From an uncultured Thiomicrospira sp. (GTDB lineage Bacteria; Pseudomonadota; Gammaproteobacteria; CAKMZV01): DNA of 32,000 nt. Shown in pieces: positions 1 through 32,000 of this stretch. The position numbers were made by a program, and so were the translations under genes. The DNA lies in assembly GCA_965195345.1 (NCBI GenBank), contig OZ239628.1, positions 803,339-835,338 on the forward strand. The letters run 5' to 3'. How positions within the stretch are numbered: the first letter of the stretch is position 1; the number at the start of each line of letters is the position of its first letter. The notes beneath the pieces are model-generated. The model saw only the letters and a program-made list of their open reading frames with translations. It was not told where the DNA came from and did not search any database.

Positions 1-1
1 G

Positions 2-3000
2 ACGATTAGCGTTGAGGTTAATCCAGTCAATGATAGACCTGTATTGATGCTATCATTAACCAGTCTTAGCTTAAATGAAGATTTTGGTACCTTTATCATA
101 AATACCACTGCAACCGACGCAGAAGATGGGACACTGTCAGTGAGCGTATCTGGACAGGCTGGCTTGGTAACCACTACTATCACCACTGGTCAAATTACTC
201 TAACTTCCATTGCCCATGCCAACGGAAGAACCACTCTAACTGTAAGCGCTAACGATAGTGAAAACCTCTTCGTAACCGACGAAGTGGTGGTGATTATCAA
301 TGCTGTTAATGATAATCCTGTATTGACGTTATCAACAACCAATCTCAGCCTTAATGAAGACTTTGGCACTTTCATAATCAACACCACTGCCACCGATATA
401 GAAGATGGCGTGTTGCCTTTTACAGTGTCTGGACAAGATGCCAGTATATTCACCGTCACTACCTCCACCAATCAGATAATGCTCACCTCCGTTGCTAATG
501 CCAACGGAATAGTTACACTAACTGTAAGTGCTAACGATAGTGAAAACCTCTCGGCAACCACCGAAGTTGTTGTTGTTGTCAATGCCATCAATGACACACC
601 CACACTTACCTTTTCAACCACTCAATTTAATCTGAATGCAAACTTTACCCCGCAAACAATAGCAACAGCAACAGACGTTGATGATATTTCCTTGCTCCTA
701 ACCTTTGCACTATCTGCAACCGATGTAGTACAAATAACGACGGTTGCTAATCAGTTTATATTAAATCCTATCATCAATGCTTTTGGCGACACAACTATCA
801 CCCTAGCAGTATCTGATGATGATGGTGCACGCTCTTCTTCTCAAATTTTCACAGTGCGCGTTAACACACCCATTGCATCGACAACGCCTACATTAGCCTT
901 ATCAACGCAGAACATCACTTTAGATGAAGACTTTGGTACTTTTATTATCAACACTACTGCAACCGATGCAGAAGATGGGACACTGTCAGTAACCGTATCT
1001 GGACAGGCTGACTTATTAACCACTAATGCTACTACTGGTCAAATTACGCTCACTTCCATTGCCAATGCTAACGGCACAACTACACTTACTGTACGTGCTA
1101 CCGATAGCGGAAACCTTTCCGTTACCACCGAAGTGGTGGTAACCATCAATGCCATCAACGATACTCCGACATTGACTCTTGCGACAACAAATATTACCAT
1201 CGTTGAAAATGCCACTGCTCGTCAAACGATTTCCATTACTGATGTGGCAGATATTGAGGGAAGCACACTTACTTTTTCAGTCATTGCCTCCACTTCTGTA
1301 TTTAGTAGTAATCCTACATCTGTAGTCTCTTTTTCAGACACAAGAATGATAACCTTCAGTAGACAAAGTACGACTGCTCAACTCTATTACACTCTACTGC
1401 CCGATACCACAGGCACTGGCTTCATTCAAATCGCTCTAACAGATGGCATAGACACACAGGTTACAACTGTTACCGTGACTGTGACAGAAGTTAGAACCTC
1501 ACCCCAAATCACTCAAGACTTTAGAACACATCGCTTCTTTGATGCGCGTGCAACACGTGTAGGCGCTGTTGGAGGTGTCTTATTTGCAGCACGAGGTGCA
1601 TTCACTGGATTGCTTGCATCAACCTCTACAGATGGTACAGGGAGTGCTATGAACCAATTAAACTTTGCTCGTTCCTTAGGGGGGAGTTTAGCCGAACTAT
1701 ACACTGAGGAAACATACAACGCTTTATTGGGTTCTGTTTTGGTTGCCAATGGCGCTACAACAGCAGGCTTTGATGATGACCGTTTTTGGCTTGGGCTTAC
1801 CAGTGTACCTAGCTTTTTTGGCGTCACTCTACCAAATCAACTTGACTCAGAAGCCCGTTATTTTTGGTTATCTGGTCAACGGGTATCGCAAGGATTAGGC
1901 GGCGGTACTCGTATAGACGTCCCAGGAGTATACATAGGCTGGGGGCCATCTGCTCCGGGTACTCAGGGTTGTGCTGATCTGATTCTTGGTGCTGAAGTAT
2001 CTGCAGCGTTCAGGCCTTGGGCAAGTGATCAATGCTTTGGAGGTGTTTTTGACGCTTTAAAAGCGTTGATGCAGTTCCCAAATGGCTTACCTACTACCTC
2101 CTCAATGATTGTTCAAGCAAGGTCTCCGATCACACTTATTCGTTTAAGTGGTTATGATCTTGATGGTTCAGATAATACATTGTCTTGGCAAGTCACCGAT
2201 GCATCTGGTGGTGGTATCGCCACTTCCACAGTCTATAGCAGTACTGGCGCACAAACCTTAGAGATTTCTTACACCCCTGTGAGCGGCTTTTCAGGCACTG
2301 CAACCCTTGTTGTAAGCTTAGATGATGGTGATAGTGCTACACAAAATAGTACTGCCCGTGTATTGGTGGTTAATAACACCCCAACTTTAACACTCTCAAC
2401 CAATGTTGTCAGCTTAGATGAAGACTTTACCAGCTTCGTCATTAACACCACTGCAACCGATGCAGAAGGGATAATCGACTTTAGTGTTAGTACAGGAAAC
2501 GGCATTGTTCTTGTAACCACCTCTGCTAATGCAATTACGCTGCAATCACTTGCGAATATAAGTGGTGCTGTAACCTTAACAGTCGTTGCGGATAGTGGTC
2601 TTTTGGCAAATACACAGACGATTAGCGTTGTGGTTAATCCAGTTAACGACACTCCCACGCTGTCTTTATCTGTGACGCAAAGGGCGCTTGCTCAAAACTT
2701 TGGCACTTTCGTCATCAACACCACTGCAACCGATGTGGAATCAGGACCATTGGGCTTTAGTGTCAGCACAGGTAATGGTATTGTCAATGTGACCACCTCT
2801 GTCAATACGATTACTCTGCAATCACTCGCTAATGTCATAGGCGATGTGACGTTAACGGTTAGCGTAAGCGATGGACTATTGACGGCGACACAGTCCATTT
2901 TTATAACCGTTAGTAGACCGTTTACGTTTGAAGTATCGACAAACACTATCGTTTTAGATGAAGATTTTAATACCTTCATTATTAACACCACTGCAACGGC

Positions 3001-5233
3001 TGCAGATGGGACTATATTACCTATTTCAGTGGTGCAGAGCAGCTCTAACCTACTTACATTCAGCACTATAACTGGGCGCATTACCCTTTCATCTATTGCG
3101 AATGCTAATGGAGTAACAACCCTTACCGTGAGTGCGGCTAATCAAAGTGGGCTAACGAACACGACAGAAGTAGCCATTACCATTAATTCCGTTAATGATA
3201 CTCCCACGCTCAGTTTATCAAGTACAAACTTAACCTTGGCATCTAATAGCACTGGTTTGATAACTGCCTTTGTCACGGATGTGGAAACAAGCAGTGCCTC
3301 ATTGATCTTTTCGGTACAACAAAATCCACCTTTGTTGCAGGTGAGTACACAAGGCAATGTCATCGTACTGAGATCGAGTGCTACTGCAGGCTCGACCACT
3401 TTAGTGATCACCGTTACTGATGGCGATGGTTCAAGCGCTTCAGCAACTGCTCGAGTTACTGTTCTATCAGGTGCTTTGAATATTGCTTTAAATGTTAAGC
3501 GCATTGATTTTTCTTGGAACACACTTCCTACAGCAAATCATTACCGCATGCTTAGCAATGTTGATTTGAATGCTGGTGGTGGTTTTGTTGATGCCAGTAG
3601 CGCAGGTTTGGTGTTTGTACCGAATAGCACGAATATTATCAATACCACAGTTTCTGCAACAGTGGATGTAGCACGCTATCTTTCTACGGCTAATGGACCA
3701 CAGTACCTGCTAGAAGCTTGTACCAGTGTGGATAATTCAGCCTGTTCTATTCATGCGCAACAAACCCTGAGCAATATTCAGTTACAGGGATTAATTGGTT
3801 ATTTTAAAGCCTCTTTTGCAGATGAGGGTGTGTTTGGTAGAGCTGTAGCAATAAGCGGTGATGGCAACACATTAGTTGTCGGTGCACCCGGAGAAAATAG
3901 CGACGCCACCGGCATCAATGGTGATCAGACGAACAATAACGCATCTGCCTCTGGTGCAGCCTATGTTTTTGTACGCAACAGTGCAGGCACATGGAGTCAA
4001 CAAGCCTATGTCAAAGCTTCTAATACAGGAGTTTTGGATCAATTTGGCACAGCTGTAGCAATAAATGATGACGGTAACACCATAGTTGTCGGTGCACTTG
4101 GGGAGGACAGTACCGCCACGGGTATCAACGGTGATCAATTAGATAATTCTGCAAGTGACTCTGGTGCAGCCTATGTTTTTGTGCGTAGTAGTACAGGTAC
4201 ATGGAGTCAACAGGCTTACATCAAGGCTTCTAATGCAGAAGCTCTTGATGATTTTGGCAGAACTGTATCGGTCACTGCTGATGGTAATACACTCGCTATT
4301 GGTGCGCCTTTAGAAGACAGTACTGCTACAGGCATTAACGGCGACGAAACAAACAATGGAGCAAGTGGCTCTGGTGCAGCCTATGTTTTTGTGCGTAGTA
4401 CTACGGGCACATGGAGTCAACAAGCTTATATCAAAGCTTCTAATGCAGAAGCTCTTGATGATTTTGGTTTTGCTGTATCGGTGAGCGATGATGGTAATAC
4501 TTTAGTTATTGGGGCATCTTTTGAAGACAGCACCGCCACGGGCATTAACGGCGATCAAACAACTAATAGTGCAAGTGCTTCTGGTGCAGCTTATGTTTTT
4601 GTGCGCAGTGCTACCGACACATGGACGCAAGAAGCCTACATCAAAGCCTCAAACACAGGTGTTAATGATCAATTTGGTTTAGCTACTTCAATTAGTGGTG
4701 ATGGTAACACACTGCTCATCAGCTCAATTGGAGAAGACAGCAATGCCACGGGTATCAACGGTGATCAAACAAACAATGCCGCAAATGGTGCTGGTGCAGC
4801 CTATGTTTTTGTGCGTAGTAGTACAGGCACATGGAGTCAACAAGCCTACATCAAGGCCTCCAATACAGGAGATCAGGATGAATTTGGTAGCGCTCTCTCA
4901 ATTAACAATGATGGTAGTATATTTGCTATCGGTGCTCCTTTTGAAGATAGTGATGTTAGTGGCATCAACGGTGATCAAATAAACAATGATGCATTTCGCG
5001 CTGGTGCAGCCTATGTTTTTGTGCGTAGTAGTACAGGCACATGGAGTCAACGAAGTTACATCAAAGCATCAAACACAGGAGTTTTAGATCGATTTGGTTC
5101 AGCTCTCTCAATAAGCGGTGATGGTAAGACACTCTCTATCGGTGCACCTTTCGAAGATAGCGATGCCACCGGCATTAATGGTGATCAGACGAATAACAAT
5201 GAGTCTGAGGCTGGTGCAGTGTATTTATATTAG
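2..5233 (+). CDS. Paralog 1 (5'-truncated by window edge): giant adhesin-like protein with cadherin-like/tandem-95-type Ig units, a C-type-lectin-like insert, an FN3-like neck and a 7-blade FG-GAP beta-propeller
   Basis: The ORF track gives 44..5233. The same frame is open back to nt 2, and nt 2-43 read TISVEVNPVNDRPVL, the tail of another Ig unit, so the real start lies upstream of the window. At least 11 Ig-like units with (N/D)DxP linkers. CTLD-like insert at 1520-2077, neck at 3488-3799, seven FG...GAP blades at 3800-5230. Ends GAVYLY, TAG at 5231-5233. Confidence 0.92.
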   Translation, partial: TISVEVNPVNDRPVLMLSLTSLSLNEDFGTFIINTTATDAEDGTLSVSVSGQAGLVTTTITTGQITLTSIAHANGRTTLTVSANDSENLFVTDEVVVIINAVNDNPVLTLSTTNLSLNEDFGTFIINTTATDIEDGVLPFTVSGQDASIFTVTTSTNQIMLTSVANANGIVTLTVSANDSENLSATTEVVVVVNAINDTPTLTFSTTQFNLNANFTPQTIATATDVDDISLLLTFALSATDVVQITTVANQFILNPIINAFGDTTITLAVSDDDGARSSSQIFTVRVNTPIASTTPTLALSTQNITLDEDFGTFIINTTATDAEDGTLSVTVSGQADLLTTNATTGQITLTSIANANGTTTLTVRATDSGNLSVTTEVVVTINAINDTPTLTLATTNITIVENATARQTISITDVADIEGSTLTFSVIASTSVFSSNPTSVVSFSDTRMITFSRQSTTAQLYYTLLPDTTGTGFIQIALTDGIDTQVTTVTVTVTEVRTSPQITQDFRTHRFFDARATRVGAVGGVLFAARGAFTGLLASTSTDGTGSAMNQLNFARSLGGSLAELYTEETYNALLGSVLVANGATTAGFDDDRFWLGLTSVPSFFGVTLPNQLDSEARYFWLSGQRVSQGLGGGTRIDVPGVYIGWGPSAPGTQGCADLILGAEVSAAFRPWASDQCFGGVFDALKALMQFPNGLPTTSSMIVQARSPITLIRLSGYDLDGSDNTLSWQVTDASGGGIATSTVYSSTGAQTLEISYTPVSGFSGTATLVVSLDDGDSATQNSTARVLVVNNTPTLTLSTNVVSLDEDFTSFVINTTATDAEGIIDFSVSTGNGIVLVTTSANAITLQSLANISGAVTLTVVADSGLLANTQTISVVVNPVNDTPTLSLSVTQRALAQNFGTFVINTTATDVESGPLGFSVSTGNGIVNVTTSVNTITLQSLANVIGDVTLTVSVSDGLLTATQSIFITVSRPFTFEVSTNTIVLDEDFNTFIINTTATAADGTILPISVVQSSSNLLTFSTITGRITLSSIANANGVTTLTVSAANQSGLTNTTEVAITINSVNDTPTLSLSSTNLTLASNSTGLITAFVTDVETSSASLIFSVQQNPPLLQVSTQGNVIVLRSSATAGSTTLVITVTDGDGSSASATARVTVLSGALNIALNVKRIDFSWNTLPTANHYRMLSNVDLNAGGGFVDASSAGLVFVPNSTNIINTTVSATVDVARYLSTANGPQYLLEACTSVDNSACSIHAQQTLSNIQLQGLIGYFKASFADEGVFGRAVAISGDGNTLVVGAPGENSDATGINGDQTNNNASASGAAYVFVRNSAGTWSQQAYVKASNTGVLDQFGTAVAINDDGNTIVVGALGEDSTATGINGDQLDNSASDSGAAYVFVRSSTGTWSQQAYIKASNAEALDDFGRTVSVTADGNTLAIGAPLEDSTATGINGDETNNGASGSGAAYVFVRSTTGTWSQQAYIKASNAEALDDFGFAVSVSDDGNTLVIGASFEDSTATGINGDQTTNSASASGAAYVFVRSATDTWTQEAYIKASNTGVNDQFGLATSISGDGNTLLISSIGEDSNATGINGDQTNNAANGAGAAYVFVRSSTGTWSQQAYIKASNTGDQDEFGSALSINNDGSIFAIGAPFEDSDVSGINGDQINNDAFRAGAAYVFVRSSTGTWSQRSYIKASNTGVLDRFGSALSISGDGKTLSIGAPFEDSDATGINGDQTNNNESEAGAVYLY
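599..886 (+). repeat. C-type Ig unit (TFSTTQF(N/S)LNANF...DVDD.SLLLTFALSATDVVQITTVAN), copy in paralog 1
   Basis: PTLTFSTTQFNLNANFTPQTIATATDVDDISLLLTFALSATDVVQITTVANQFILNPIINAFGDTTITLAVSDDDGARSSSQIFTVRVN. The same unit occurs twice in paralog 2. Confidence 0.85.
1520..2077 (+). other. C-type-lectin-like domain (CTLD) inserted in the paralog 1 stalk
   Basis: Motif order matches the CTLD fold: LGGSLAELYTEETYNAL (compare GGHLASIxSxEExxF), RFWLGLT (WIGLTD), YFWLSGQRVS (WxWSDG), YIGWG.SAP....C (YxNWxxGEPNxxxxxDC), then RPWASDQC (GxWNDxxC). There are only two Cys, in the positions expected for the C2-C3 disulfide. No canonical EPN/QPD + WND Ca/sugar triad. Confidence 0.55.
3488..5230 (+). other. 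Paralog 1 C-terminal head: FN3-like neck (3488-3799) plus seven FG-GAP blades (3800-5230)
   Basis: The neck reads LNVKRIDFSWNTLPTANHYRML...YLLEACTSVDNSACS, a Y-x-x-x-AC...C-S pattern typical of bacterial FN3-like domains. It is followed by 7 repeats of about 61 aa: FGxxVxxSxDGNTxxVGAPxEDSxATGINGDQ...SGAAYVFVRxxxGTWSQQAYIKASN. Each literally contains an FG...GAP motif and a DGN loop, as in integrin-alpha FG-GAP repeats. Confidence 0.75.
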
Positions 5234-5483
5234 AATACGTATATAGCTAAAAGAGAACTAAAATTGCTTGATTACCCATACATTATGTATTCATCAGGAA
5301 GACGGGCATACAGCTTTTCTATTTAACGTTTATTGCTTTAAATGTTATAAACTGCTTGCATGTTTCATCATACTTTAATTTATAATCAATCAAATTGTCA
5401 CAGGCAAAATGTGAGCTTCTATCACATACGCAAGCTGTAGTGAAATTGTAATTGCATAATTAAATACATTAAGGTGAATTGAT
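5234..5483 (+). promoter_or_regulatory. Spacer upstream of paralog 2 (hybrid cassette: conserved distal half, unique proximal half) with a candidate promoter and RBS
   Basis: The first about 150 nt align with the cassette found after paralogs 3-6 (acgtatatagctaaaag...cattatgtattcatcagga...aaatgttat.aactg.ttgcatg...ctttaatttataat). Candidate TTGCAT 5356-5361 / TATAAT 5381-5386, but with a 19-nt spacing (suboptimal). The proximal about 100 nt are unique. RBS AAGGTG 5471-5476. Confidence 0.4.
5398..5426. promoter_or_regulatory. Three phased TCACA / TGTGA / TCACA half-sites (12-nt register) upstream of paralog 2
   Basis: TCACA 5398-5402, TGTGA 5410-5414, TCACA 5422-5426. TGTGA-N7-TCACA resembles the CRP-type TGTGA-N6-TCACA palindrome, but the spacer is one nt too long. 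Confidence 0.25.
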
Positions 5484-8400
5484 ATGGGATATATACAGCG
5501 CTGGGCATTTCTGTTGTTGCTTGTTTTTCTGTCAGCTTGTGGTGGTGGTGATGGCGACACAATACCTCCGTCTACTAACACAACACCAACTTTAAGTCTC
5601 TCTGTCAATGCCGTAACGCTTGATGAAGATTTTGGTACCTTTATCATCAACACCACTGCCACCGACGTAGAAGATGGGACGCTGTCAGTGACCGTGTCTG
5701 GACAGGCTGGCTTGCTAACCACTAATGCTACTACTGATCAAATTACGCTCACTTCCATTGCCAATGCTAACGGAACAACTACACTCACTGTAAGTGCTAC
5801 CGATAGTGGCGCTCTTACAGTCTCCACCGAAGTGGTTGTTATTGTCAATGCCGCCAATGATACGCCCACACTTACCTTTTCAACCACTCAATTTAGTCTA
5901 AATGCAAATTTCATGCCTCAGACAATAGCAACAGCAACAGACGTTGATGATGCTTCCTTGCTCCTAACCTTTGCACTATCTGCAACCGATGTAGTACAAA
6001 TAACGACAGTTGCTAATCGGTTTATATTAAATCCTATCACTAATGCTTTTGGCGAGACAACCATCACTCTAACAGCAACTGATAGCAGCGGCAATCAGTC
6101 ATCTCAACGTTTTACAGTGCATGTTAACGCATCCATTGCATCGACAACACCTACATTAGCCTTATCAACGCAACGTATCACTTTAGATGAAGATTTTGGC
6201 ACTTTCGTCATCAACACCACTGCAAGTGATGCAGAAGATGGCGTGCTTCCCGTTGCAGTGACTGGACAAGACGCCAGTCTATTCGCCGTAACCACTTCTA
6301 CCGATCAGATAATACTTACCTCCGTTGCTAATGCCACCGGCATAGCCACGCTTACAGTAAGCATTGTTGATAGCGGAAATCTCTCCGCTACCACCGAAGT
6401 GGTTGTTGTTGTCAATGGCATCAATGATAGTCCTACATTGACACTATCAACAACGAACCTCAGCCTCAGTGAAGATTTTGGCACTTTCGTCATCAACACC
6501 ACTGCAAGTGATGCAGAAGATGGCGTGCTTCCCGTTGCAGTGACTGGACAAGACGCCAGTCTATTCGCCGTAACCACTTCTACCGATCAGATAATACTTA
6601 CCTCCGTTGCTAATGCCACCGGCATAGCCACGCTTACAGTAAGCATTGTTGATAGTGGAAATCTCTCCGCTACCACCGAAGTGGTTGTTGTTGTCAATGG
6701 CATCAATGATAGTCCTACCTTGACACTATCAACAACGAACCTCAGCCTCAGTGAAGATTTTGGCACTTTCGTCATCAACACCACTGCAAGTGATGCAGAA
6801 AATGGCAGGCTTCCCGTTGCAGTGACTGGACAAGATGCCAGTCTATTCGCCGTAACCACTTCTACCGATCAGATAATACTTACCTCCGTTGCTAATGCCA
6901 ACGGAACAGCCACACTCACTGTAAGCATTGTTGATAGTGGAAATCTCTCCGCTACCACCGAAGTGGTTGTTGTTGTCAATGGCATCAATAGTGCACCTGC
7001 ATTGACGCTATCAACAACGAACCTCAGCCTCAGTGAAGATTTTGGCACTTTCGTCATCAACACCACTGCCACCGATGTAGAAGATGGCGTGCTTCCCGTT
7101 GCAGTGACTGGACAAGATGCCAGTTTATTCGCCGTAACCACTTCTACCGATCAGATAATACTTACCTCCGTTGCTAATGCCAACGGAACAGCCACACTCA
7201 CTGTAAGCATTGTTGATAGTGGAAATATCTCCGCTACCACCGAAGTGGTTGTTGTTGTCAATGCCATCAATGATAGTCCTACATTGACACTATCAACAAC
7301 GAACCTCAGCCTCAGTGAAGATTTTGGCACTTTCGTCATCAACACCACAGCAAGTGATGCAGAAGATGGCGTGCTTCCCGTTGCAGTGACTGGACAAGAT
7401 GCCAGTCTATTCGCCGTAACCACTTCTACCGATCAGATAATACTTACCTCCGTTGCCAATGCCAACGGAACAGCCACGCTTACAGTAAGCATTGTTGGTA
7501 GCGGAAATCTCTCCGCTACCACCGAAGTGGTTGTTGTTGTCAATGCCATCAATGATAGTCCTACATTGACACTATCAACAACGAACCTCAGCCTCAGTGA
7601 AGATTTTGGCACTTTCATCATCAACACCACTGCCACCGATGCAGAAGATGGCGTGCTTCCCGTTGCAGTGACTGGACAAGATGCCAGTTTATTCGCCGTA
7701 ACCACTTCTACCGATCAGATAATACTTACCTCCGTTGCTAATGCCAACGGCATAGCCACACTTACAGTAAGCATTGTTGATAGTGGAAATCTCTCCGCTA
7801 CCACCGAAGTGGTTGTTGTTGTCAATGCCATCAATGATAGTCCTACATTGACACTATCAACAACGAACCTCAGCCTTAGTGAAGATTTTGGCACTTTCGT
7901 CATCAACACCACTGCAAGTGATGCAGAAGATGGCGTGCTTCCCGTTGCAGTGACTGGACAAGATGCCAGTCTATTCGCCGTAACCACTTCTACCGATCAG
8001 ATAATACTTACCTCCGTTGCCAATGCCAACGGAACAGCCACGCTTACAGTAAGCATTGTTGGTAGCGGAAATCTCTCCGCTACCACCGAAGTGGTTGTTG
8101 TTGTCAATGCCATCAATGATAGTCCTACATTGACACTATCAACAACGAACCTCAGCCTCAGTGAAGATTTTGGCACTTTCATCATCAACACCACTGCCAC
8201 CGATGCAGAAGATGGCGTGCTTCCCGTTGCAGTGACTGGACAAGATGCCAGTTTATTCGCCGTAACCACTTCTACCGATCAGATAATACTTACCTCCGTT
8301 GCTAATGCCAACGGCATAGCCACACTTACAGTAAGCATTGTTGATAGTGGAAATCTCTCCGCTACCACCGAAGTGGTTGTTGTTGTCAATGCCATCAATG

Positions 8401-19202: not shown

Positions 19203-19449
19203 ATACGTATATAGCTAAAAGGCAATTAGAGTTGCTTGATTAACCCACCATTATGTATTCATCAGGAGAACAGGCGCACAACTTTTTTACTTAATGTTTC
19301 GCTGTAAATGTTATGAACTGTTTGCATGTTTTCTCATGCTTTAATTTATAATGATTAGGATTGCTGGATTGTAGACATACTGCTTTTATCAAACACATAA
19401 ACTGTTGTGATAATTGTGATTTCATAGTTAAAATAAAATATAGGACTAA
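19203..19449 (+). promoter_or_regulatory. Full-length conserved intergenic cassette upstream of paralog 5, with two candidate sigma70-like promoters
   Basis: Distal candidate: TTGCAT 19322-19327, 19 nt, TATAAT 19347-19352. Proximal candidate: TTGTGA 19405-19410, 18 nt, TAAAAT 19429-19434; this would leave only about a 10-nt leader. Direct repeat TTGTGAT at 19405-19411 and 19414-19420. AGGA at 19442-19445. Confidence 0.4.
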
Positions 19450-23922: not shown

Positions 23923-24170
23923 AAGACGTATATAGCTAAAAGGCAATTAGAGTTGCTTGATTACCCCACCATTATGTGTTCATCAGGAGAACAGGCACAC
24001 AGCTTTTTTACTTAATGTTTCGCTGTAAATGTTATGAACTGTTTGCATGTTTTCTCATGCTTTAATTTATAATGATTAGGATTGCTGGATTGTAGACATA
24101 CTGCTTTTATCAAACACATAAACTGTTGTGATAATTGTGATTTCATAGTTAAAATAAAATATAGGACTAA
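23923..24170 (+). promoter_or_regulatory. Full-length conserved intergenic cassette upstream of paralog 6
   Basis: Near-identical copy of 19203-19449. TATAAT 24068-24073, TTGTGA 24126-24131, TAAAAT 24150-24155. Confidence 0.4.
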
Positions 24171-27100
24171 ATGAAAATGAACCATTTAAAGTGCTGGGGA
24201 TTTCTATTATCACTCGTTTTTTTATCTGCCTGTGGCGGTGGGGGTGGCGGCGATTCAACACCTCCGTCTACTAATACAGCACCAAGTTTAAGTCTCTCTG
24301 TCAATGCCCTAATGCTTGATGAAGATTTTGGCACTTTTGTCATCAATACCACTGCAACCGATGCAGAAGATGGGACACTGTCCGTAACTGTATCTGGACA
24401 GGCTGGTTTGCTAACCACTGATGTCACCACTGGTCGAATTACCCTAACTTCCATTGCCAATGCTAACGGCACAGCTACACTTACTGTACGTGCTACCGAT
24501 AGCGGAAACCTCTCTGCTACCACCGAAGTGGTTGTCACCATTAACGCCATCAATGATGCCCCGACATTTACTCTTGCTACAACAAACATTACTATCGTTG
24601 AAAATGCCACTGCTCGTCAAACGATTTCCATTCCCAATGTAGTCGATGTTGACGGAAACGCACTGACCTTTTCAGTCATTGCCTCCACTTCTTTATTTAG
24701 TACTAACCCAACACCTGTTGTGTCTTTTTCAGATACAAGGGTGATAATCTCCGATACACAACCTACAGCTCAACTCTATTACAGCCTACTGCCCGACGTC
24801 ACAGGCTCTGGCTTCATTCAAATTGCTTTAACAGATGGCATAGAGACCCAACGTACGACCGTTACTGTTACTGTTACAGAAGTTAGAACTCCACCCCAAA
24901 TTACCCAAGACTTTAGAACACATCGCTTCTTTGATGCGCGTGCAACGCGTGTAGGCGCTGTTGGAGGTGTCTTATTTGCAGCACGAGGTGCATTTACTGG
25001 ATCGACTGAAACAACCTCAACAGATGGTACGGGGAATTTTAGTAATCAATTAAACTTTGTCCGTTCCTTAGGAGGGAGTTTAGCCGAACTTTACACTGAG
25101 GAAACATACAACGCTTTATTGGGTTCTGTTTTGGTTTCCAATGGCACTGCAACAGCAGACTTTAATGATGATCGTTTTTGGCTTGGACTCACTGATACAC
25201 CCAATGCTTTTGGCGCTTCTGTGTCAGATCAATCTGCCTCAGTAGAGCGTTATTTTTGGTTGTCTGGTCAGCGGGTGTCACAAGGATTAGGTATTTCTCG
25301 TATAGAAGTTCCAGGAGTGTACATAGGCTGGGGGGCATCCGCCCCAACTGCAAGCAATCAGCCCTGTGCTAATTTGATTCTTGGTGCCGAAGTATCTGCA
25401 GGTCTCAGACCTTGGGCAAGTACTGGGTGCGATGGATCATCATCTGCTACTTTCAATGTGCTAAAAGCGTTGATGCAGTTCCCAAATGGCTTACCTACTA
25501 CTTCTTCAATGATTGTTCAAGCGAGGCTCCCAATCACACGTATTCGTTTAAGTGGTTATGATCTTGATGGTTCAGATAATACATTGTCTTGGCAAGTTAC
25601 CGATGCATCTGGTGGTGGTATCACTACTTCCACAGTCTATAGCAGTACTGGCGCACAAACCTTAGAGATTTCTTACACTCCTGTGAGCGGCTTTTCAGGA
25701 ACTGCGACCCTTGTTGTAAGCTTAGATGATGGTGATAGTGCTACGCAAAATAGTACTGCCCGTGTATTGGTGGTTAATAACACACCAACTTTAACACTCT
25801 CAACCAATGTTGTCAGCTTAGATGAAGACTTTACCAGCTTCGTCATTAACACCACTGCAACCGATGCAGCAGGGATAATCGACTTTAGTGTTAGCACAGG
25901 AAACGGTATTGTTTTTGTAACCACCTCTGCTAATGCGATTACACTGCAATCACTTTCGAATATAAATGGTGCTGTAACCTTAACAGTCGTTGCGGATAGT
26001 GGTCTTTTGACAAATACACAGACGATTAGCGTTGTGGTTAATCCAGTTAACGACACTCCCACGCTGTCTTTATCTGTGACGCAAAGGGTGCTTGCTCAAA
26101 ACTTTGGCACTTTCGTCATCAACACCACTGCAACCGATGTGGATTCAGGCCCATTGGGCTTTAGTGTCAGTACAGGTAATGGCATTGTTAATGTAACAAC
26201 CTCTGTCAATACGATTACTCTGCAATCACTCGCTAATGTCATAGGCGATGTGACGTTAACGGTTAGCGTAAGCGATGGACTATTGACGACGACACAGTCC
26301 ATTTTTATAACCGTTAGTAGACCGTTTACGTTTGAAGTATCGACAAACACTATCGTTTTAGATGAAGATTTTAATACCTTCATTATTAACACCACTGCAA
26401 CGGCTGCAGATGGGACTATATTACCTATTTCAGTGGTGCAGAGCAGTTCTAACCTACTTACATTCAGCACTATAACTGGGCGCATTACCCTTTCATCTAT
26501 TGCGAATGCTAATGGAGTAACAACTCTTACCGTGAGTGCGGCTAATCAAAATGGACTAACGAACACGACAGAAGTAGCGATTACCGTTAATTCCGTTAAT
26601 GACACTCCCACACTCAGCTTATCAACTACAAACTTAACTTTCTCACCTAATGGAACCGGTTTTATAACTGCTTTTGGTGCGGATGTGGAAACAAGCAGTG
26701 CCTCATTGATCTATTCTGTACAACAAAATCCATCTTTGTTGCAGGTGAGTACACCAGGCAATGTCATTGTACTGAGAGCGGATGATACTACAGGTTCGAC
26801 AACTTTAGTGATAACCGTTACTGATGGCGGTGGTTCAAGCGCTTCAGCAACTGCTCGAGTTACTGTTCTATCAGGTGTTTTGAATGCTTTGAGCGTAAGT
26901 TTAAATGTTAAACGCATTAACTTTTCTTGGAACACACTTCCTACAGCAAACCATTACCGTATGCTTAGCAATGTCGATTTGAACGCTGGTGGTGGTTTTG
27001 TTGATGCCAGTAGCGCAGGTTTGGTGTTTATACCGAATAGCACGAATATTATCAATACTACAGTCTCTGCAACAGTGGATGTGGCACGCTATCTTTCTAC

Positions 27101-28634
27101 GGCTGATGGACCACAGTATCTGCTGCAAGCTTGTAGTAGTGTGGACAATTTCGCTTGTTCTAATCTTGCACAACAATCTCTGAGCAATATTCAGTTAGAG
27201 GGATTGATTGGTTACTTCAAAGCTTCTAATACGGAAATGGGAGATGAATTTGGTGAGGGTGTCGCAATAAGTGGTGATGGCAACACATTAGTTGTCGGTG
27301 CACCCGGAGAAGATAGCGACGCCACCGGCATCAACGGCGATGAATCAGACAATTCTAGAAGTAACTCTGGTGCAGCCTATGTTTTCGTGCGCAGTAGTAC
27401 AGGCAGCTGGCGTCAACAAGCATACCTTAAAGCCTCTGATGCAGCAGATGATGATGGGTTTTCTTCAAGAGCTGTAACAATAAGCAATGACGGTAATACT
27501 ATAGTTGTTGGTGCACCACGCAAGGATGTTGCCGCTCCTGGCGGTAGCCCCCAGGGCAACACTGGTGCAGCCTATGTTTTCGTGCGCAGTAGTACCGGCA
27601 GCTGGCGTCAACAGGCTTTCATCAGCGCTTCTAATCTAAATGCCAATGATCAGTTTGGAACAGCTGTATCGGTTGCTGCTGATGGTAATACACTCGCTAT
27701 CGGTGCGCCTTCAAAAACTGTACGTACTATAGATTCTATGGGTCAATCTGTGAGCAGAGCTACTGCTGGTACAGCCTATGTTTTTGTACGCAGTAGTACA
27801 GATTCATCATGGAGTGAGCAAGCTATATTGACAGCACCTTTTGTAACGAGTTTTGCTTTTTTTGGTAATGCTGTATCGATGAGTGGTGATGGTAATACCA
27901 TGGTCGTCGGTGCAGACGGTGACCAAAGTACTGGCACGGGTATCGGCAGTGATGAATCCACCATTAATGATTTTGGTACCGGTGCTGCCCATGTTTTTGT
28001 ACGTAGTAGTACGGGTAGATGGAGTCGGCAAGAATATTTTAAAGCCTCAAATGCAGAAGGTACTGATCTCTTTGGTACAGCTGTATCGATGAGCGGTGAT
28101 GGTAATACCATGGTCGTTGGTGCACCAGGGGAAGACAGCAATGCCACGGGTGTCGACGGGGATCAAGCAAATAATGGTAGTGGTGTTAATTCAAATTCTG
28201 GTGCAGCCTATGTTTTTGTGCGCAGTAGTACGGGCACATGGACGCAAGAAGCCTATATCAAAGCCTCAAATACAGGAGATGGTGATGTGTTTGGTTCTGT
28301 TCTCTCAATGAGCAATGATGGTAATGCGTTCGTTGTTGGTGCACCAAATGAGGACAGCAATGCCACGGGAATCAACGGGGGGGAAGCAGGTGGTGCTAAT
28401 AACGCTGGTGCAGTCTATCTTTTTGTGCGCAGTGGTACGACATGGCGTCAACAAGCCTATACCAAAGCCTCAAACACAGGAGCTGATGATGCGTTTGGTG
28501 ACTCTGTTTCAATAAGCAGTGATGGTAAAACGTTTGCTGTTGGCGCATCTGGCGAAAATGGCAGCGCCACTGGTATCAATGGCGATCAAACAGACGATAG
28601 TCAAGATAACGCTGGTGCAGTGTATTTGTATTAG
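24171..28634 (+). CDS. Paralog 6: 1487-aa predicted lipoprotein, a tandem duplicate of paralog 5 with a diverged propeller
   Basis: Offset exactly 4721 bp from paralog 5. Identical signal peptide and lipobox (Cys codon 24231-24233). I count 16 aa differences from paralog 5 over the first 1014 aa. CTLD-like 24912-25481, neck 26901-27212, blades 27213-28631. Ends GAVYLY, TAG. Confidence 0.95.
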   Translation: MKMNHLKCWGFLLSLVFLSACGGGGGGDSTPPSTNTAPSLSLSVNALMLDEDFGTFVINTTATDAEDGTLSVTVSGQAGLLTTDVTTGRITLTSIANANGTATLTVRATDSGNLSATTEVVVTINAINDAPTFTLATTNITIVENATARQTISIPNVVDVDGNALTFSVIASTSLFSTNPTPVVSFSDTRVIISDTQPTAQLYYSLLPDVTGSGFIQIALTDGIETQRTTVTVTVTEVRTPPQITQDFRTHRFFDARATRVGAVGGVLFAARGAFTGSTETTSTDGTGNFSNQLNFVRSLGGSLAELYTEETYNALLGSVLVSNGTATADFNDDRFWLGLTDTPNAFGASVSDQSASVERYFWLSGQRVSQGLGISRIEVPGVYIGWGASAPTASNQPCANLILGAEVSAGLRPWASTGCDGSSSATFNVLKALMQFPNGLPTTSSMIVQARLPITRIRLSGYDLDGSDNTLSWQVTDASGGGITTSTVYSSTGAQTLEISYTPVSGFSGTATLVVSLDDGDSATQNSTARVLVVNNTPTLTLSTNVVSLDEDFTSFVINTTATDAAGIIDFSVSTGNGIVFVTTSANAITLQSLSNINGAVTLTVVADSGLLTNTQTISVVVNPVNDTPTLSLSVTQRVLAQNFGTFVINTTATDVDSGPLGFSVSTGNGIVNVTTSVNTITLQSLANVIGDVTLTVSVSDGLLTTTQSIFITVSRPFTFEVSTNTIVLDEDFNTFIINTTATAADGTILPISVVQSSSNLLTFSTITGRITLSSIANANGVTTLTVSAANQNGLTNTTEVAITVNSVNDTPTLSLSTTNLTFSPNGTGFITAFGADVETSSASLIYSVQQNPSLLQVSTPGNVIVLRADDTTGSTTLVITVTDGGGSSASATARVTVLSGVLNALSVSLNVKRINFSWNTLPTANHYRMLSNVDLNAGGGFVDASSAGLVFIPNSTNIINTTVSATVDVARYLSTADGPQYLLQACSSVDNFACSNLAQQSLSNIQLEGLIGYFKASNTEMGDEFGEGVAISGDGNTLVVGAPGEDSDATGINGDESDNSRSNSGAAYVFVRSSTGSWRQQAYLKASDAADDDGFSSRAVTISNDGNTIVVGAPRKDVAAPGGSPQGNTGAAYVFVRSSTGSWRQQAFISASNLNANDQFGTAVSVAADGNTLAIGAPSKTVRTIDSMGQSVSRATAGTAYVFVRSSTDSSWSEQAILTAPFVTSFAFFGNAVSMSGDGNTMVVGADGDQSTGTGIGSDESTINDFGTGAAHVFVRSSTGRWSRQEYFKASNAEGTDLFGTAVSMSGDGNTMVVGAPGEDSNATGVDGDQANNGSGVNSNSGAAYVFVRSSTGTWTQEAYIKASNTGDGDVFGSVLSMSNDGNAFVVGAPNEDSNATGINGGEAGGANNAGAVYLFVRSGTTWRQQAYTKASNTGADDAFGDSVSISSDGKTFAVGASGENGSATGINGDQTDDSQDNAGAVYLY
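24912..25481 (+). other. C-type-lectin-like domain (CTLD) inserted in the paralog 6 stalk
   Basis: Copy of the paralog 5 domain with 4 aa differences: SSSL to SASV (two changes), GSSAP to GASAP, SNEPC to SNQPC. Confidence 0.55.
26901..28631 (+). other. Paralog 6 C-terminal head: FN3-like neck (26901-27212) plus seven FG-GAP blades (27213-28631)
   Basis: Same motifs, seven cores. The FG of blade 2 is degenerate (SSRAVTISNDGNT). Blades 5-7 resemble those of paralog 2. Confidence 0.75.
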
Positions 28635-28794
28635 AATACGTATATAGCTAAAAGGCAATTAGAGTTGCTTGATTACTCCACCATTATGTATTCATCAGAA
28701 GAACAGGCGCACAACTTTTTTACTTAACGTTTATTGCTGTAAATGTTATAAACTGTTGTGGTAATTATGATTTCATAGTGAGAATATAAGGTTA
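28635..28794 (+). promoter_or_regulatory. Shortened intergenic cassette upstream of paralog 7 (internal deletion of about 84 nt)
   Basis: The sequence jumps from ...gctgtaaatgttataAACTGTT straight to gtggtaattatgatttcatag. The full cassette has two AACTGTT direct repeats (19316-19322 and 19400-19406) flanking exactly the missing segment. The deletion removes the distal TATAAT element and keeps the proximal TTGTG(A/G) element. Confidence 0.45.
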
Positions 28795-31700
28795 ATGAAA
28801 ATGAAACATTTAAAACGTTGGGGATTTCTACTACTATTTGTCTTTCTAACTGCCTGTGGGGATGACACAACACCTTTGTCTACTAATATTAACACAACAC
28901 CAAACTTAAGTCTCTCTGTCAATACCTTAACACTTGATGAAGATTTTGGCACTTTTATCATCAATACCACTGCTACTGATGCAGAAGATGGGATACTGCC
29001 AGTAACCGTATTTGGACAGGCTGGCTTGCTAACCACTGATGTCACTACTGGCCAAATTACGCTCACTTCCATTGCTAATGCTACCGGCATAGCTACGCTC
29101 ACAGTGCGTGTTGTTGATAGCGAAAACCTCCCCGTTTCCACCGAAGTGGTGGTGACCGTAAACGCCATCGATGATACGCCTGTTTTGACGTTATCAACGA
29201 CTAACCTCAGTCTCAGTGAAGATTTTGGCACTTTTATTATCAACACTACAGCAACTGATGTAGAGGATGGTGTATTATCTTTTACAGTATCTGGTCAAGA
29301 TACAAGTGTATTAACAGTCAGAACTTCCACCAATCAGATAATACTCACCTCCGTTGCTAATGCCACCGGAACAGTCACACTCACTGTAAGCGCTACCGAC
29401 AGTGAGGCTCTTACAGCTAACACCGAAGTGGTGGTGATCATCAATGACATCGATGATACTCCTGTGCTGACAATATCAACAACGAACCTCAGCCTCAGTG
29501 AAGACTTTGGCACTTTTATCATCAACACCACTGAGGGTGATATAGAAGATGGTGTATTACCTTTTACAGTATCTGGTCAAGATGCAAGTATATTAACAGT
29601 TAGCACTGCTATCAATCAGATAATACTCACCTCCGTTGCTAATGCCAACGGAACAGTCACACTCACTGTAAGTGCTACTGATAGTGAGGATCTTACAGTC
29701 TCCACCGAAGTGGTGGTGATTATTAATGCCGTCAATGATACGCCTGTATTGACGCTATCAACAACCAACCTTAGCCTCAGTGAAGACTTTGGCACTTTCA
29801 TCATCAACACCACTGCAAGTGATGCAGAAGATGGCGTGCTTCCCGTTGCAGTGACTGGACAAGATGCCAGTCTATTCGCCGTAACCACTTCTACCGATCA
29901 GATAATACTTACCTCCGTTGCCAATGCCAACGGAACAGCCACGCTCACTGTAAGCATTGTTGATAGCGGTAACCTCTCCACTTCCACTGAAGTGGTGGTT
30001 GTTGTCAACGCCATCAACGATACGCCTGTATTGACGCTATCAACATCTAACCTCAGTCTCGATGAGGATTTTGGCACTTTCATCATCAACACCACTGCAT
30101 CTGATGCAGAAGATGGTGTGTTATCTTTTACGGTATCTGGTCAAGATGCAAGTGTATTAACAGTCAGCACTTCTATCAATCAGATAATGCTCACTTCCGT
30201 TGCTAATGCTAATGGAACAATGACTCTTACAGTCAGTGCAACCGATCAAGGTGGACTAACGACAACGGCAAAAATAACTATTGTCATTAATCCTGTTGAT
30301 GACAATCCAATACTTAATTTATCAGCAACAAACTTTAACTTACTAATGGATACAGCTGCGGTGCTCACTGCCTTTGGTGTAGATGTGGATTCAAGCAGTG
30401 CCGTGTTGGTCTATTCTGCACAGCAAGAAACACCTCTGTTAAATCAGATACAAATAGCAAGCAATACCATCGCGCTGGGAGCAGGTAATACTTTAGGCTC
30501 AACCACTTTGGTAATCACCGTCACTAATGACAGAGGATTAAGTACTTCTGCAACCGCTCGAGTTACTGTTTTATCTGCTATTTCGAATACTTTTTTAAAT
30601 GTAAGTTTAAATGTTAAGCGGATTAACTTTTCTTGGAGTATGCTTCCTGCAGCCAATCATTACCGCATGCTCAGCAATGTGAATTTGGCTACAGCGCGTG
30701 GCTTTGTTGATGCCAGTAGTGCACATGCAGTGTTTGCACCGAATAGCACCAATATTATCAATACTACAGTCTCTGCGACAGTAAATGTGGCGCGTTATCT
30801 TTCTACGGCTGATAGACCAGAGTATCTGCTACAAAGTTGTACGAGTGTGGATAATTCAGCCTGTTCTACTTATGCACAAGCAGCCCTGAGCAATACTCAA
30901 ATAAAGGGATTGATTGGTACTTTCAGACCCACTTGGCCAGACTTTGGAGATCAATTTACTGAAAGTCTGACATTCAATGGCGCTGGTAATATTTTTGTTG
31001 CTGGTGCACCTTTTGAAAGCAGTGACTTTACTGGCATCAACACATTTGTTTTAGTAGGTTCAAACAATAGGGCTAGGGCCTCTGGCGCAGCCTATATTTT
31101 TGAGCTTAGTAGCACTGGCACGTGGAGTCAACGAGCTTACCTCAAAGCCTCTAATACAGGAGTTGGTGATTTCTTTGGTAGAAGTCTGGCAATAAGTGGC
31201 GACGGCAATACTTTAGCTGTTGGGGCAACTTTGGAAGACGGCACCTCCACTGGCGTAAACGGGTATCAATTTAGCGATAATGAACTTCAATCCGGTGCAG
31301 TTTATGTTTTTGTGCGTAGTAGTGCCGGTGCATGGAGCCAGCAAGCGTACATAAAAGCTTCTAATACAGAAATGTATGAACAATTTGGTAGAGCTCTAAC
31401 AGTCAGCAGTAACGGCAATACCATCTTTGTTGGTGTCCCTCGTGAGGCTACTGGATTAGACGGCGATCAAACAAGAAACGGTGCACCTCAATCTGGCGGA
31501 GTCTATGTTTTTGAGCGCAACAGTTCGAGCGTATGGAGCCAAACAGCTTTAATCAAAGCTTCTAATTTACAGGCTGGTGACAATTTTGGTGAGGCTGTAT
31601 CGGTAAGCAGTGACGGCAATGTTTTACTTGTTGGTGCCCCTTTTGAAGCCAGTCTCGCTACTGGAATTAACGGAGATCAAACAAACAATGCTGGAAATGA

Positions 31701-32000
31701 CACTGGCGCAGCTTATCTTTTTGTCCGTAGTAGCACTGGTTCGTGGAACCAACAAGCCTACATCAAAGCCTCAAATCCAGAGGAATTTGATGTTTTTGGT
31801 GCCAGAGTAGCGATAAGTGGTGATGGTAATACCCTAGCCGTTGGAGCGGATTCAGAAGATAGCAACGCCACTGGAATCAATGGCGATCAAACGAACAATG
31901 ATGCACTTCAATCCGGTGCAGTCTATGTTTATGCTCGTAGTGGTACCGATACATGGGCACAACAAGCCTACATCAAAGCCTCTAATACAGACGCATACGA
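28795..32000 (+). CDS. Paralog 7 (3'-truncated by window edge, absent from the ORF track): predicted lipoprotein with 6 Ig-like units, an FN3-like neck and at least 5 FG-GAP blades
   Basis: I translated it by hand from ATG 28795 (alternative 28801): MKMKHLKRWGFLLLFVFLTACGDDTTP..., lipobox LTAC (Cys codon 28855-28857). I met no stop codon in this frame through 31998. It has the same architecture as the other paralogs: DEDFGTFIINTTATDAEDG units, KRINFSW...ANHYRML neck at 30607-30918, blades from 30919. It is probably missing from the track because the ORF is not closed inside the window. Confidence 0.9.
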   Translation, partial: MKMKHLKRWGFLLLFVFLTACGDDTTPLSTNINTTPNLSLSVNTLTLDEDFGTFIINTTATDAEDGILPVTVFGQAGLLTTDVTTGQITLTSIANATGIATLTVRVVDSENLPVSTEVVVTVNAIDDTPVLTLSTTNLSLSEDFGTFIINTTATDVEDGVLSFTVSGQDTSVLTVRTSTNQIILTSVANATGTVTLTVSATDSEALTANTEVVVIINDIDDTPVLTISTTNLSLSEDFGTFIINTTEGDIEDGVLPFTVSGQDASILTVSTAINQIILTSVANANGTVTLTVSATDSEDLTVSTEVVVIINAVNDTPVLTLSTTNLSLSEDFGTFIINTTASDAEDGVLPVAVTGQDASLFAVTTSTDQIILTSVANANGTATLTVSIVDSGNLSTSTEVVVVVNAINDTPVLTLSTSNLSLDEDFGTFIINTTASDAEDGVLSFTVSGQDASVLTVSTSINQIMLTSVANANGTMTLTVSATDQGGLTTTAKITIVINPVDDNPILNLSATNFNLLMDTAAVLTAFGVDVDSSSAVLVYSAQQETPLLNQIQIASNTIALGAGNTLGSTTLVITVTNDRGLSTSATARVTVLSAISNTFLNVSLNVKRINFSWSMLPAANHYRMLSNVNLATARGFVDASSAHAVFAPNSTNIINTTVSATVNVARYLSTADRPEYLLQSCTSVDNSACSTYAQAALSNTQIKGLIGTFRPTWPDFGDQFTESLTFNGAGNIFVAGAPFESSDFTGINTFVLVGSNNRARASGAAYIFELSSTGTWSQRAYLKASNTGVGDFFGRSLAISGDGNTLAVGATLEDGTSTGVNGYQFSDNELQSGAVYVFVRSSAGAWSQQAYIKASNTEMYEQFGRALTVSSNGNTIFVGVPREATGLDGDQTRNGAPQSGGVYVFERNSSSVWSQTALIKASNLQAGDNFGEAVSVSSDGNVLLVGAPFEASLATGINGDQTNNAGNDTGAAYLFVRSSTGSWNQQAYIKASNPEEFDVFGARVAISGDGNTLAVGADSEDSNATGINGDQTNNDALQSGAVYVYARSGTDTWAQQAYIKASNTDAY
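29743..30024 (+). repeat. Gene-2-type B unit embedded as unit 4 of paralog 7
   Basis: About 29785-29968 matches the paralog 2 B-unit DNA almost base for base (ggcactttcatcatcaacaccactgcaagtgatgcagaagatggcgtgcttcccgttgcagtgactggacaagatgccagtctattcgccgtaaccacttctaccgatcag...). The flanking units of paralog 7 are a different, divergent type (GVLPFTVSGQDASILTVSTAINQ). Confidence 0.85.
30607..32000 (+). other. Paralog 7 C-terminal head (partial): FN3-like neck (30607-30918) plus FG-GAP blades from 30919 to the window edge
   Basis: KRINFSWSMLPAANHYRML neck. Blade 1 is degenerate (FGDQFTESLTFNGAGNIFVAGAPFESSDFTGINTFVLVGSNNRARASGAAYIFEL). Four more canonical blades follow, and a sixth begins at the window end. 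This is the most divergent head in the array. Confidence 0.7.

Follow-up and report, generated by a model that had tools for sequence, protein, structure and literature searches.

The 32 000-nucleotide stretch of contig OZ239628.1 analysed here (positions 803 339 to 835 338, from an uncultured Thiomicrospira sp.; hereafter the window) is occupied by a tandem array of seven open reading frames (ORFs), all on the plus strand and named p1 to p7. They encode one family of predicted lipoproteins and make up 95.6% of the window, in agreement with a first-pass annotation made from the letters alone, which had assigned about 96% to one family on one strand. Each complete member starts with a lipobox signal peptide, continues with a stalk of immunoglobulin (Ig)- or cadherin-like units whose number varies from gene to gene, and ends with a neck and a seven-bladed propeller, the head. 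With slightly better than even confidence, the array is interpreted as a set of surface-displayed binding proteins whose reach and head specificity have been diversified by recombination. Among the observations that agree with it are two comparisons, one between neighbouring genes and one between two strains, in which the stalks of neighbouring copies were found to be nearly identical and the heads divergent. The genes, their modules and the spacers between them are given below; CTLD-like denotes an insert that resembles a C-type lectin-like domain (CTLD).

p1, 2-5233, plus strand: 5' end cut by the window edge, 1743 aa within the window; edge-cut unit, 4 units, divergent unit, CTLD-like insert (1484-2167), partial unit, 4 units, neck (3488-3796), propeller (3797-5230).
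p2, 5484-13250, plus strand: 2588 aa; lipobox Cys19, 21 units (5601-11519), neck (11508-11816), propeller (11817-13247).
p3, 13515-15986, plus strand: 823 aa; lipobox Cys26 followed by a run of eight Gly, 2 units, neck (14217-14525), propeller (14526-15983).
p4, 16236-19202, plus strand: 988 aa; lipobox Cys21 followed by a run of nine Gly, 4 units, neck (17460-17768), propeller (17769-19199).
p5, 19450-23922, plus strand: 1490 aa; lipobox Cys21, 1 unit, divergent unit, CTLD-like insert (20155-20850), partial unit, 4 units, neck (22180-22488), propeller (22489-23919).
p6, 24171-28634, plus strand: 1487 aa; p5-type layout with CTLD-like insert (24876-25571), neck (26901-27209), propeller (27210-28631).
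p7, 28795 to beyond 32000, plus strand: 3' end cut by the window, full protein (P0009) of 1169 aa; lipobox LTAC with Cys21, 6 units, neck (30607-30915), propeller from 30916.
Conserved spacer of about 248 nt, plus strand, in five of the six spacers: 5234-5483 (this copy holds the p2 start region), 15987-16235, 19203-19449, 23923-24170 and, shortened, 28635-28794.
Odd spacer between p2 and p3, 13251-13514, plus strand: unrelated to the other five.

The contrast between stalk and head is sharpest in the neighbours p5 and p6. From the upstream spacer through signal peptide, stalk and insert, their DNA is 98-100% identical. The value is slightly lower in the neck (95-97%) and, from the first blade onward, falls to 67-91% with indels. 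The first-pass annotation had supposed that the array displays the same head, one class of head at graded distances from the cell; the heads turned out to be the most divergent module. Its statement that the C-terminal module is fixed in every member thus applies to the architecture and not to the head sequence. In p2, p5 and p6 the canonical EDS-x-ATGINGDQ loop of blades 2-4 is replaced by unrelated, indel-rich sequence. Over the C-terminal 2.1 kb of these three genes the two-against-one site patterns are near equal in number (109/85/95) and strongly clustered (134 runs vs 192.6 ± 8.0 in 10 000 permutations, p < 1e-4), and the window-by-window best matches of each head switch partner. Because the patterns are clustered and the partners switch, the p2, p5 and p6 heads carry the signature of mosaics formed by recombination or gene conversion. 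dN/dS ratios were calculated by the Nei-Gojobori method. Among the heads they were 0.83-0.95 for p2, p5 and p6 and 0.31-0.49 for pairs that are less closely related. Necks gave 0.1-0.55; the stalk values were 0.19-0.32 for p5/p6 and p1/p5 and 0.72 for the short stalk pair of p3 and p4. Column entropy across eleven paralog heads was highest in the 2-3 loops (1.27) and 4-1 loops (1.16), followed by the 3-4 loops (0.83), the strands (0.61) and the 1-2 loops (0.56).

The second comparison was made with a sister strain (ENA assembly ERZ25066422, contig_40, 317 kb), whose LepA is 99% identical to that of the window genome. Its array also holds seven family genes, of 2244, 716, 2645, 815, 1485, 1499 and 1179 aa in this order. 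DNA alignment paired p1 with the 2645-aa gene (93% identity), p3 with the 815-aa gene, p5 and p6 with the 1485- and 1499-aa genes and p7 with the 1179-aa gene. The order p1-p3-p5-p6-p7 is therefore the same in both strains; synteny in a related genome, proposed at first pass as a check, is conserved, and an independent assembly shows the same kind of array, which speaks against the artefact that had been named as a possible refutation. Between strains the stalks share 88-92% amino-acid identity (dS 0.12-0.17). Identity of the heads ranges from 98% (p7) and 94% (p1) through 85% (p5) and 75% (p6) to 68% (p3). Within the sister strain, the 1485- and 1499-aa genes share 98-100% of their positions in spacer and stalk but only 70-81% in the head, and their stalks differ from those of p5 and p6 by 5-8%. 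As neighbouring stalks are nearly identical within each strain yet 5-8% apart between strains, they have been homogenised within each genome since the strains split, by a process that stopped at the propeller. Concerted evolution of neighbouring stalks, with the heads kept apart, is thus the pattern that the sequences of both strains point to.

Gene content also differs between the strains. No ortholog of p2 was found in the sister strain: its stalk units match those of other genes at only 77-88%, and its head is about 83-85% identical to p5-type heads. With repeat units 93-95% alike and no counterpart in the sister strain, p2 looks like a recently built gene, made of an amplified unit and a p5-type head. 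There is no separate ortholog of p4 in that strain either. The sister ortholog of p1 (2645 aa) has two CTLD-like inserts, about 15 clear units and two partial ones, so the full p1 is probably much longer than the 1743 aa within the window.

The nature of the heads was judged from profile search and structure prediction. Pfam FG-GAP_2 (PF14312; gathering threshold 23 bits) gave exactly seven stretches in each complete member (163-190 bits, E 1e-48 to 1e-57) and four in the part of p7 within the window. The count of seven FG-GAP blades per head made by eye was therefore right. The profile support expected for these blades is strong, and it comes from PF14312 and not from PF01839, the family first named. 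An AlphaFold2 model of p3, the short member proposed for structure prediction, was built on a 65-sequence alignment and reached a mean predicted local distance difference test (pLDDT) score of 87 and a predicted template modelling score of 0.76, with most of the propeller above pLDDT 90. In this model, a pair of Ig-like sandwiches is followed by a neck that resembles a sandwich and has two short helices, and then by seven blades of four strands each. An N-terminal strand (338-340) precedes blade 1 and a C-terminal strand (818-822) lies at the other end of the ring, and the modelled ring is read as a velcro-type closed seven-bladed propeller. The integrin Ca2+ hairpin D-x-[DN]-x-D-G-x-x-D has no match in any of the seven heads, where the corresponding loop is S-x-(G/D)-D-G-N-T. 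A sequence search of the PDB with the propeller gave no match. The p7 propeller (30916-32000; P0009 residues 700-1169) is atypical, with a degenerate blade 1 (TFRPTWPDFGDQFTESLTFNGAGN) and a blade 7 without the long 2-3 loop; it is nonetheless the head most conserved between strains.

The module of neck and propeller is widespread. Among 8000 candidates scored, 7805 matched it at E <= 1e-10, from Myxococcota and Planctomycetota (with metagenome-assembled genomes, MAGs, of both), Bacteroidota and many Proteobacteria; isolates under the names Microbulbifer, Paucimonas and Noviherbaspirillum are among the sources. When the 110 best full-length homologs of the head in other taxa were inspected, a lipobox was present in about 40%, and a Gly run often came after it. 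The suggestion that a set of metazoan adhesion modules indicates host binding is weakened by this distribution over thousands of proteins of many phyla, and by the missing integrin Ca2+ motif. The neck itself is 103 aa (309 nt) long in all seven members; its constancy had been noticed at first pass, with a length of 312 nt that was slightly too high. No Pfam family matched it. In the 65-sequence alignment, its consensus F-x-W ... A-x-x-Y ... C ... C ... GY-x-KASN adjoins this propeller in other taxa as well.

Stalk units were counted with a hidden Markov model (HMM) built iteratively from the ~95-aa units of the window itself. The HMM placed 21 units in p2, 2 in p3, 4 in p4 and 6 in p7, and so reproduced the numbers obtained by eye. 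In p5 and p6 each it found 1 unit, an insert region of about 325 aa (a divergent segment of ~100 aa plus the CTLD-like insert of ~230 aa), one partial unit and 4 units. In p1 it found an edge-cut unit, 4 units, a p5-type insert, a partial unit and 4 units, 8 of them clear in the window. The first-pass totals of 7 units for p5 and p6 and at least 11 for p1 were recovered only when divergent and partial units were included; the clear units are fewer (5 and 8). The NCBIfam tandem-95 profile (NF012211, cut-off 90 bits), named beforehand as a check, matched every member. It scored above the cut-off in p2 (320 bits, 18 stretches), p1 (148), p5 (112) and p7 (106); p3 (28 bits) and p4 (52 bits) have too few units to reach 90 bits, yet the tandem-95 unit is present in both. 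In Pfam, Big_9 matched the units above its cut-off and Cadherin_4 below it (E ~0.009). When the p3 model was compared with the PDB using Foldseek, the matches fell on the stalk and included cadherins, protocadherins, desmocollin, titin, an Aeromonas RTX adhesin (its extender repeats), the neck of GhpA and SGBP-B; protocadherins, desmocollin and cadherin-23 were found at E 1e-8 to 1e-10. The motif [VIL]NxV[NDS]DxP occurs 33 times, at unit ends (VNxVNDxP type), and resembles the cadherin Ca2+-binding linker DxNDNxP. From these motifs a Ca2+-stiffened stalk is plausible. Within the p2 stalk, positions 6188-11209 form an array of 17.9 copies of a 282-nt unit that are 93-95% identical in pairs. GC skew follows the modules, at about -0.15 in the stalks (Thr/Ser/Val-rich, ACN/GTN codons) and +0.12 to +0.18 in the propellers (Gly/Asp-rich). 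The alternation reflects the base composition of the repeats and has nothing to do with replication.

For the insert shared by p1, p5 and p6, the identity as a C-type lectin domain, claimed at first pass, is marginal. The 230-aa core (p5 residues 236-467) had Pfam Lectin_C (PF00059) as its top match, at 13-15 bits (E 0.05-0.13) against a cut-off of 22.6, and the only other Pfam match of the insert region was a much weaker one to Cadherin_4, on the divergent unit. A profile of the four insert copies had its best PDB match (E 0.15) in the N-acetylglucosamine-specific lectin 6a7s, which we take to be a C-type lectin, over RYFWLSG...VYIGWG..AP...C, where the WIGL, W-x-W and GWG-x-P-x-C elements lie. 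By eye, the segments GGSLAEL, FWLGLT, W-x-S-G and GWG and the second cysteine pair (C2-C3) follow one another in the order usual for CTLDs, while the first cysteine pair (C1-C4) and the EPN/WND motifs for Ca2+ and sugar were not seen. An AlphaFold2 model of the insert on a 4-sequence alignment was unusable (pLDDT 31). A CTLD identity is therefore suggested at a marginal level. A word-indexed homolog search gave no match, and a HMMER search of 1.84 billion cluster representatives returned only P0121 (1864 aa, from the same 1.92 Mb contig) and two spurious repeat proteins; judged by these searches, the insert module is confined to this lineage. In the sister-strain ortholog of p1 (relative positions 12413-20350; L080:12413-20350), the cassette of units, divergent unit, CTLD-like insert and partial unit is present twice, so the cassette itself is a unit of duplication.

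Lipid anchors were predicted with a PROSITE PS51257-type rule (K/R in the N-region, a hydrophobic core, the lipobox [LVI][ASTVI][GAS]C and Cys at residue 15-35). All six intact N-termini of the window and all seven sister-strain genes conform to it. The six N-termini have K/R within the first 7 residues, an 11-residue hydrophobic core (mean Kyte-Doolittle 2.25-2.87), LSAC or LTAC with Cys at 19-26, and Gly at +2. In p2 to p6 the Cys is followed by a run of 3-9 Gly and a linker rich in Pro, Thr and Ser, whereas the p7 sequence at this place is CGDD. Mixed GGT/GGC/GGG codons, and not homopolymers, code for the Gly runs. The array proteins are thus predicted to be N-terminally acylated lipoproteins with a type-II signal peptide and, except in p7, a flexible Gly-rich tether. 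A signal peptide with lipobox and an upstream spacer for every complete member had been described at first pass, and both were recovered; the gene layout also supports the accompanying point that, with the anchor N-terminal, the propeller is the distal end. Gly at +2 differs from the Asp retention signal known in E. coli. At ~4-4.5 nm per unit, our own estimate from the size of cadherin domains, the 21 units of a p2-type stalk would span ~90 nm, far beyond the width of the periplasm.

Each gene of the array has a spacer upstream. A promoter-like TTATCA-17-GATAAT is found at the matching place in three spacers, as a consensus match only, and promoter-like sites are not enriched in the window overall (41 vs 33.8 ± 6.7 expected). 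The hairpins at gene ends that resemble terminators are weak and fall within coding sequence, and an Rfam scan of the window found no RNA family. Next to the odd spacer (13251-13514), the N-region of the p3 signal peptide also deviates (MLKNSEKKIYHVSW...); with a spacer and an N-region of its own, p3 entered the array, or stayed in it, together with the sequence upstream of it. On the minus strand, four ORFs of 157-236 aa were rejected as genes, being fully antisense to the p genes and without a significant family match. The window was found to contain neither silent or promoterless cassettes nor homopolymers that reach 8 nt. Slipped-strand phase variation was accordingly discarded, since the Gly runs use mixed codons and such homopolymers are missing.

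The family extends beyond the window. At least five further paralogs (P0003, P0004, P0005, P0007 and P0121) are encoded elsewhere in the 1.92 Mb genome, and the summed family occupies at least ~50 kb of it. Distant relatives, with ~45% protein identity, were found on OZ255827.1 and OZ255843.1, two complete MAG chromosomes of ~2.1 Mb labelled Gammaproteobacteria. OZ255827.1 has at least 25 family ORFs covering at least 132 kb (6.3%), and OZ255843.1 at least 14 covering at least 64 kb (3.1%). Stalk length in these relatives runs from 0 to ~31 units. Some of the genes are arranged in tandem and others stand alone, and in all of them L(S/T)AC precedes a Gly/Ser run. After the sister strain, the next LepA relatives of the window genome have 77% identity, and named genera such as Sulfurivirga and Methylomagnum have 66-70%, which places the organism far from cultured taxa. 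No sign of host association was seen, and these nearest named relatives are sulfur and methane oxidisers. The family ORFs of OZ255843.1 and OZ255827.1 (L001:4164-, L001:9902-, L009:8357-, L032:907- and others) stay open over ~40 codons 5' of the signal peptide. This stretch is conserved (MYKLFSIFSISSLLQGHAV.RSILAFMS...RTFKAVNRRALSTIG) and is included in database gene calls; it could be an N-region of unusual length or else a 5' leader that is conserved and in frame.

Other genes lie beside the arrays. Near those of the distant relatives (L009:17879-20047, L072:1661-8254 and L005:15620-16489), lipoproteins with the same style of anchor (LLTSCGGSGGG) were found. The one at L009 is a subtilase (Peptidase_S8, E 5e-39) with a proprotein-convertase P-domain and PKD-like domains, and from these domains a protease partner for the array proteins is conceivable. 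A small secreted protein of ~187 aa (MN.K.LSLILRICLLGLAFLITP.NAQQYYYDGQ...), without a Pfam match, recurs beside the arrays of both distant relatives (L072:17331-17891, L005:15015-15575, L005:9351-9806 and L001:18218-18787). In the sister strain, the array is preceded by a minus-strand porin gene and then an aldehyde dehydrogenase gene. On its other side come, in order, an ORF of 79 aa, a gene for patatin, a block on the minus strand and the genes for LepA, LepB and FxsA. The block (L078:15620-20496) lies ~2 kb past the last array gene and has four genes. One product is a membrane protein of MotA/ExbB type (Pfam E 2e-5) and another, of 522 aa, contains an FGE-sulfatase domain (E 8e-42); the remaining two are membrane proteins without known function, one of 175 aa and one of 586 aa whose middle part is acidic and rich in Q, E and N. 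The block may be an energised envelope machine.

Taken as surface-displayed binding proteins, the array would work as follows. The acylated Cys would sit in the outer membrane and the protein would project outward, with the propeller at its far tip. In beta-propellers in general the 2-3 and 4-1 loops lie on one face, and a ligand would be bound on this face, where the paralogs differ most. That ligand could be a host, a particle, a polymer or another cell. As the sequences show, the family evolves through gene conversion and unequal crossing-over, for which the repeated spacers, units, necks and blades are the substrate: the stalks of neighbours are homogenised within a genome, the heads stay different as mosaics of one another, and whole genes (p2, p4) and numbers of units are gained and lost between strains. 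The result is a repertoire that varies independently in reach, through stalk length, and in head specificity. The first-pass idea of a recombining repertoire of surface variants stands in this evolutionary sense, given mosaic heads, concerted stalks and gene gain and loss, and not in the sense of programmed switching, of which no sign was found. A wider claim is more doubtful and is put forward only tentatively: that an uncultured gammaproteobacterial lineage of ~2 Mb genomes keeps a combinatorial surface-receptor repertoire of dozens of lipid-anchored proteins, with a reach of 0 to ~31 units, specificity set by the propeller face, conversion that stops at the propeller and 3-6% of the genome devoted to it.

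Several points weigh against surface-displayed binding. A review of lipoprotein localisation gives Slam, type II secretion (T2SS) and Bam as the proteobacterial routes to the surface (PMC7857515). The window encodes no Slam, T2SS or other exporter and no regulator, as the first-pass annotation had likewise noted, and neither kind of gene was recognised in the sister-strain flanks, which covered ~3 kb upstream and 10 kb downstream of its array. The head dN/dS of ~0.9 is also compatible with relaxed constraint, or with conversion from diverged donors, instead of positive selection. The variable loops are assigned to one face from general propeller topology and not from model coordinates. Finally, PF14312 propellers have no known ligand and essentially no literature, and by sequence no solved structure could be detected for them.

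As regards function, the chief alternative to host adhesion in our analysis is that polymers or particles are captured, as SusE/F and SGBP do. The proteins would then be nutrient- or particle-capturing surface lipoproteins, or enzymes, with heads for different substrates, and we consider this unlikely without dismissing it. SGBP-B of Bacteroides ovatus is among the Foldseek matches (rank 33, E 3e-8), and it follows a like plan, with a lipid at the N-terminus, a stalk of beta-sandwiches and a binding domain at the distal end; that match, however, falls on the Ig-like stalk and not on the head. The wide spread of the head module among named isolates, the weak lectin likeness of the insert and the relatedness to sulfur and methane oxidisers with no sign of a host also agree with capture. 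In contrast, no TonB-dependent transporter, glycoside hydrolase or lyase gene lies beside the array in the sister-strain flanks, and no CAZy-type or carbohydrate-binding Pfam match exceeded its threshold. It is less probable still that the proteins are outer- or inner-membrane lipoproteins that face the periplasm, with a structural or spacing role in the envelope. The Lol route is the default for lipoproteins with Gly at +2, and the flanks offer no exporter. The lipobox, moreover, tells little about localisation (PMC7857515). Against such a location stand the stalks of 21 units, and ~31 in relatives, which by estimate are several times the width of the periplasm, and the fast head diversification and copy-number turnover, which are typical of outward-facing proteins.

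Two explanations concern the array itself. Programmed antigenic or phase variation, in which one copy is expressed and the others serve as donor cassettes, would account for mosaic heads, clear gene conversion and conserved spacers. We regard it as very improbable, since every copy is complete, with its own start codon, signal peptide and upstream spacer, there are neither promoterless cassettes nor homopolymers of the length given above, and genes for a recombinase or an invertase were seen neither in the window nor in the flanks that were covered. The region is also extremely repetitive, and an assembly might have expanded or collapsed its repeats into a false array. This we hardly credit: the frames, of up to 7.8 kb, are all open, differences between copies amount to 5-30%, and the independent sister assembly has the order p1-p3-p5-p6-p7. 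The number of units in p2 could still be slightly off.

The building blocks of the family (lipobox, tandem-95 units and FG-GAP_2 propeller) are already catalogued; the family itself is uncharacterised. Literature searches on PF14312/FG-GAP_2, on tandem-95 and on the accession numbers returned nothing relevant and no description of such arrays. Nor was the behaviour of the array found described, with its length-graded stalks, homogenised stalks with diversified heads, and a share of several percent of a small genome. If surface-displayed binding proteins diversified in reach and specificity is the correct reading, the array would be a clean natural experiment, as p5 and p6 share a stalk and differ in head, p2 and p5/p6 share a head type and differ in stalk, and the paired strains reveal which module is homogenised and which is diversified. 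On the wider claim of a combinatorial repertoire, the family would be a bacterial counterpart of adhesion receptors that are graded in length and diversified in specificity, and very long lipoproteins would need a so far undescribed route across the outer membrane. Surface exposure would raise the question of how lipoproteins of up to 2600-4000 residues cross a proteobacterial outer membrane, and would show what an environmental bacterium with a small genome spends several percent of its DNA on.

Among known systems, the giant RTX adhesins of type I secretion systems (T1SS), such as LapA, MpIBP and the Aeromonas protein 6xi1, have a similar plan: an anchor at the N-terminal end, tandem Ig-like extenders of ~100 aa and distal C-terminal ligand-binding modules. 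Their extender domains are probably stiffened by Ca2+, as is plausible for the stalk units of the array, and 6xi1 was itself a Foldseek match. The array proteins differ in being anchored by a lipid on Cys+1 and not by a plug in a T1SS pore, in having no RTX/T1SS signal, in carrying an FG-GAP_2 propeller at the tip, and in being many mid-sized tandem paralogs instead of one giant gene. SusE/SusF and SGBP-B (6e57) of Bacteroides share the N-terminal lipobox, the flexible tether, the chain of beta-sandwiches and the binding domain at the far end. They belong, however, to another phylum with another export route and to polysaccharide-utilisation loci beside SusC/D, which are absent here, and they have neither a propeller head nor multi-copy arrays. 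LigA/LigB of Leptospira and Vlp/Vsp of Mycoplasma are tandem-repeat lipoproteins whose paralogs change repeat number and recombine, and whose length affects surface access. The array resembles them as a set of tandem-repeat lipoprotein paralogs with changing repeat number; the Lig proteins differ in using Big_2 domains without a propeller, and the Mycoplasma proteins in having short low-complexity repeats and in switching by promoter tracts or invertible elements, none of which were found here. The integrin alpha subunit also bears a seven-bladed FG-GAP propeller (same Pfam clan) at the end of a beta-sandwich leg. It is of the PF01839 type with the Ca2+ motif, where the array heads are PF14312 and lack it; the array shows no beta-subunit partner and no I-domain; and the orientation is opposite, the integrin propeller being N-terminal and its anchor C-terminal.

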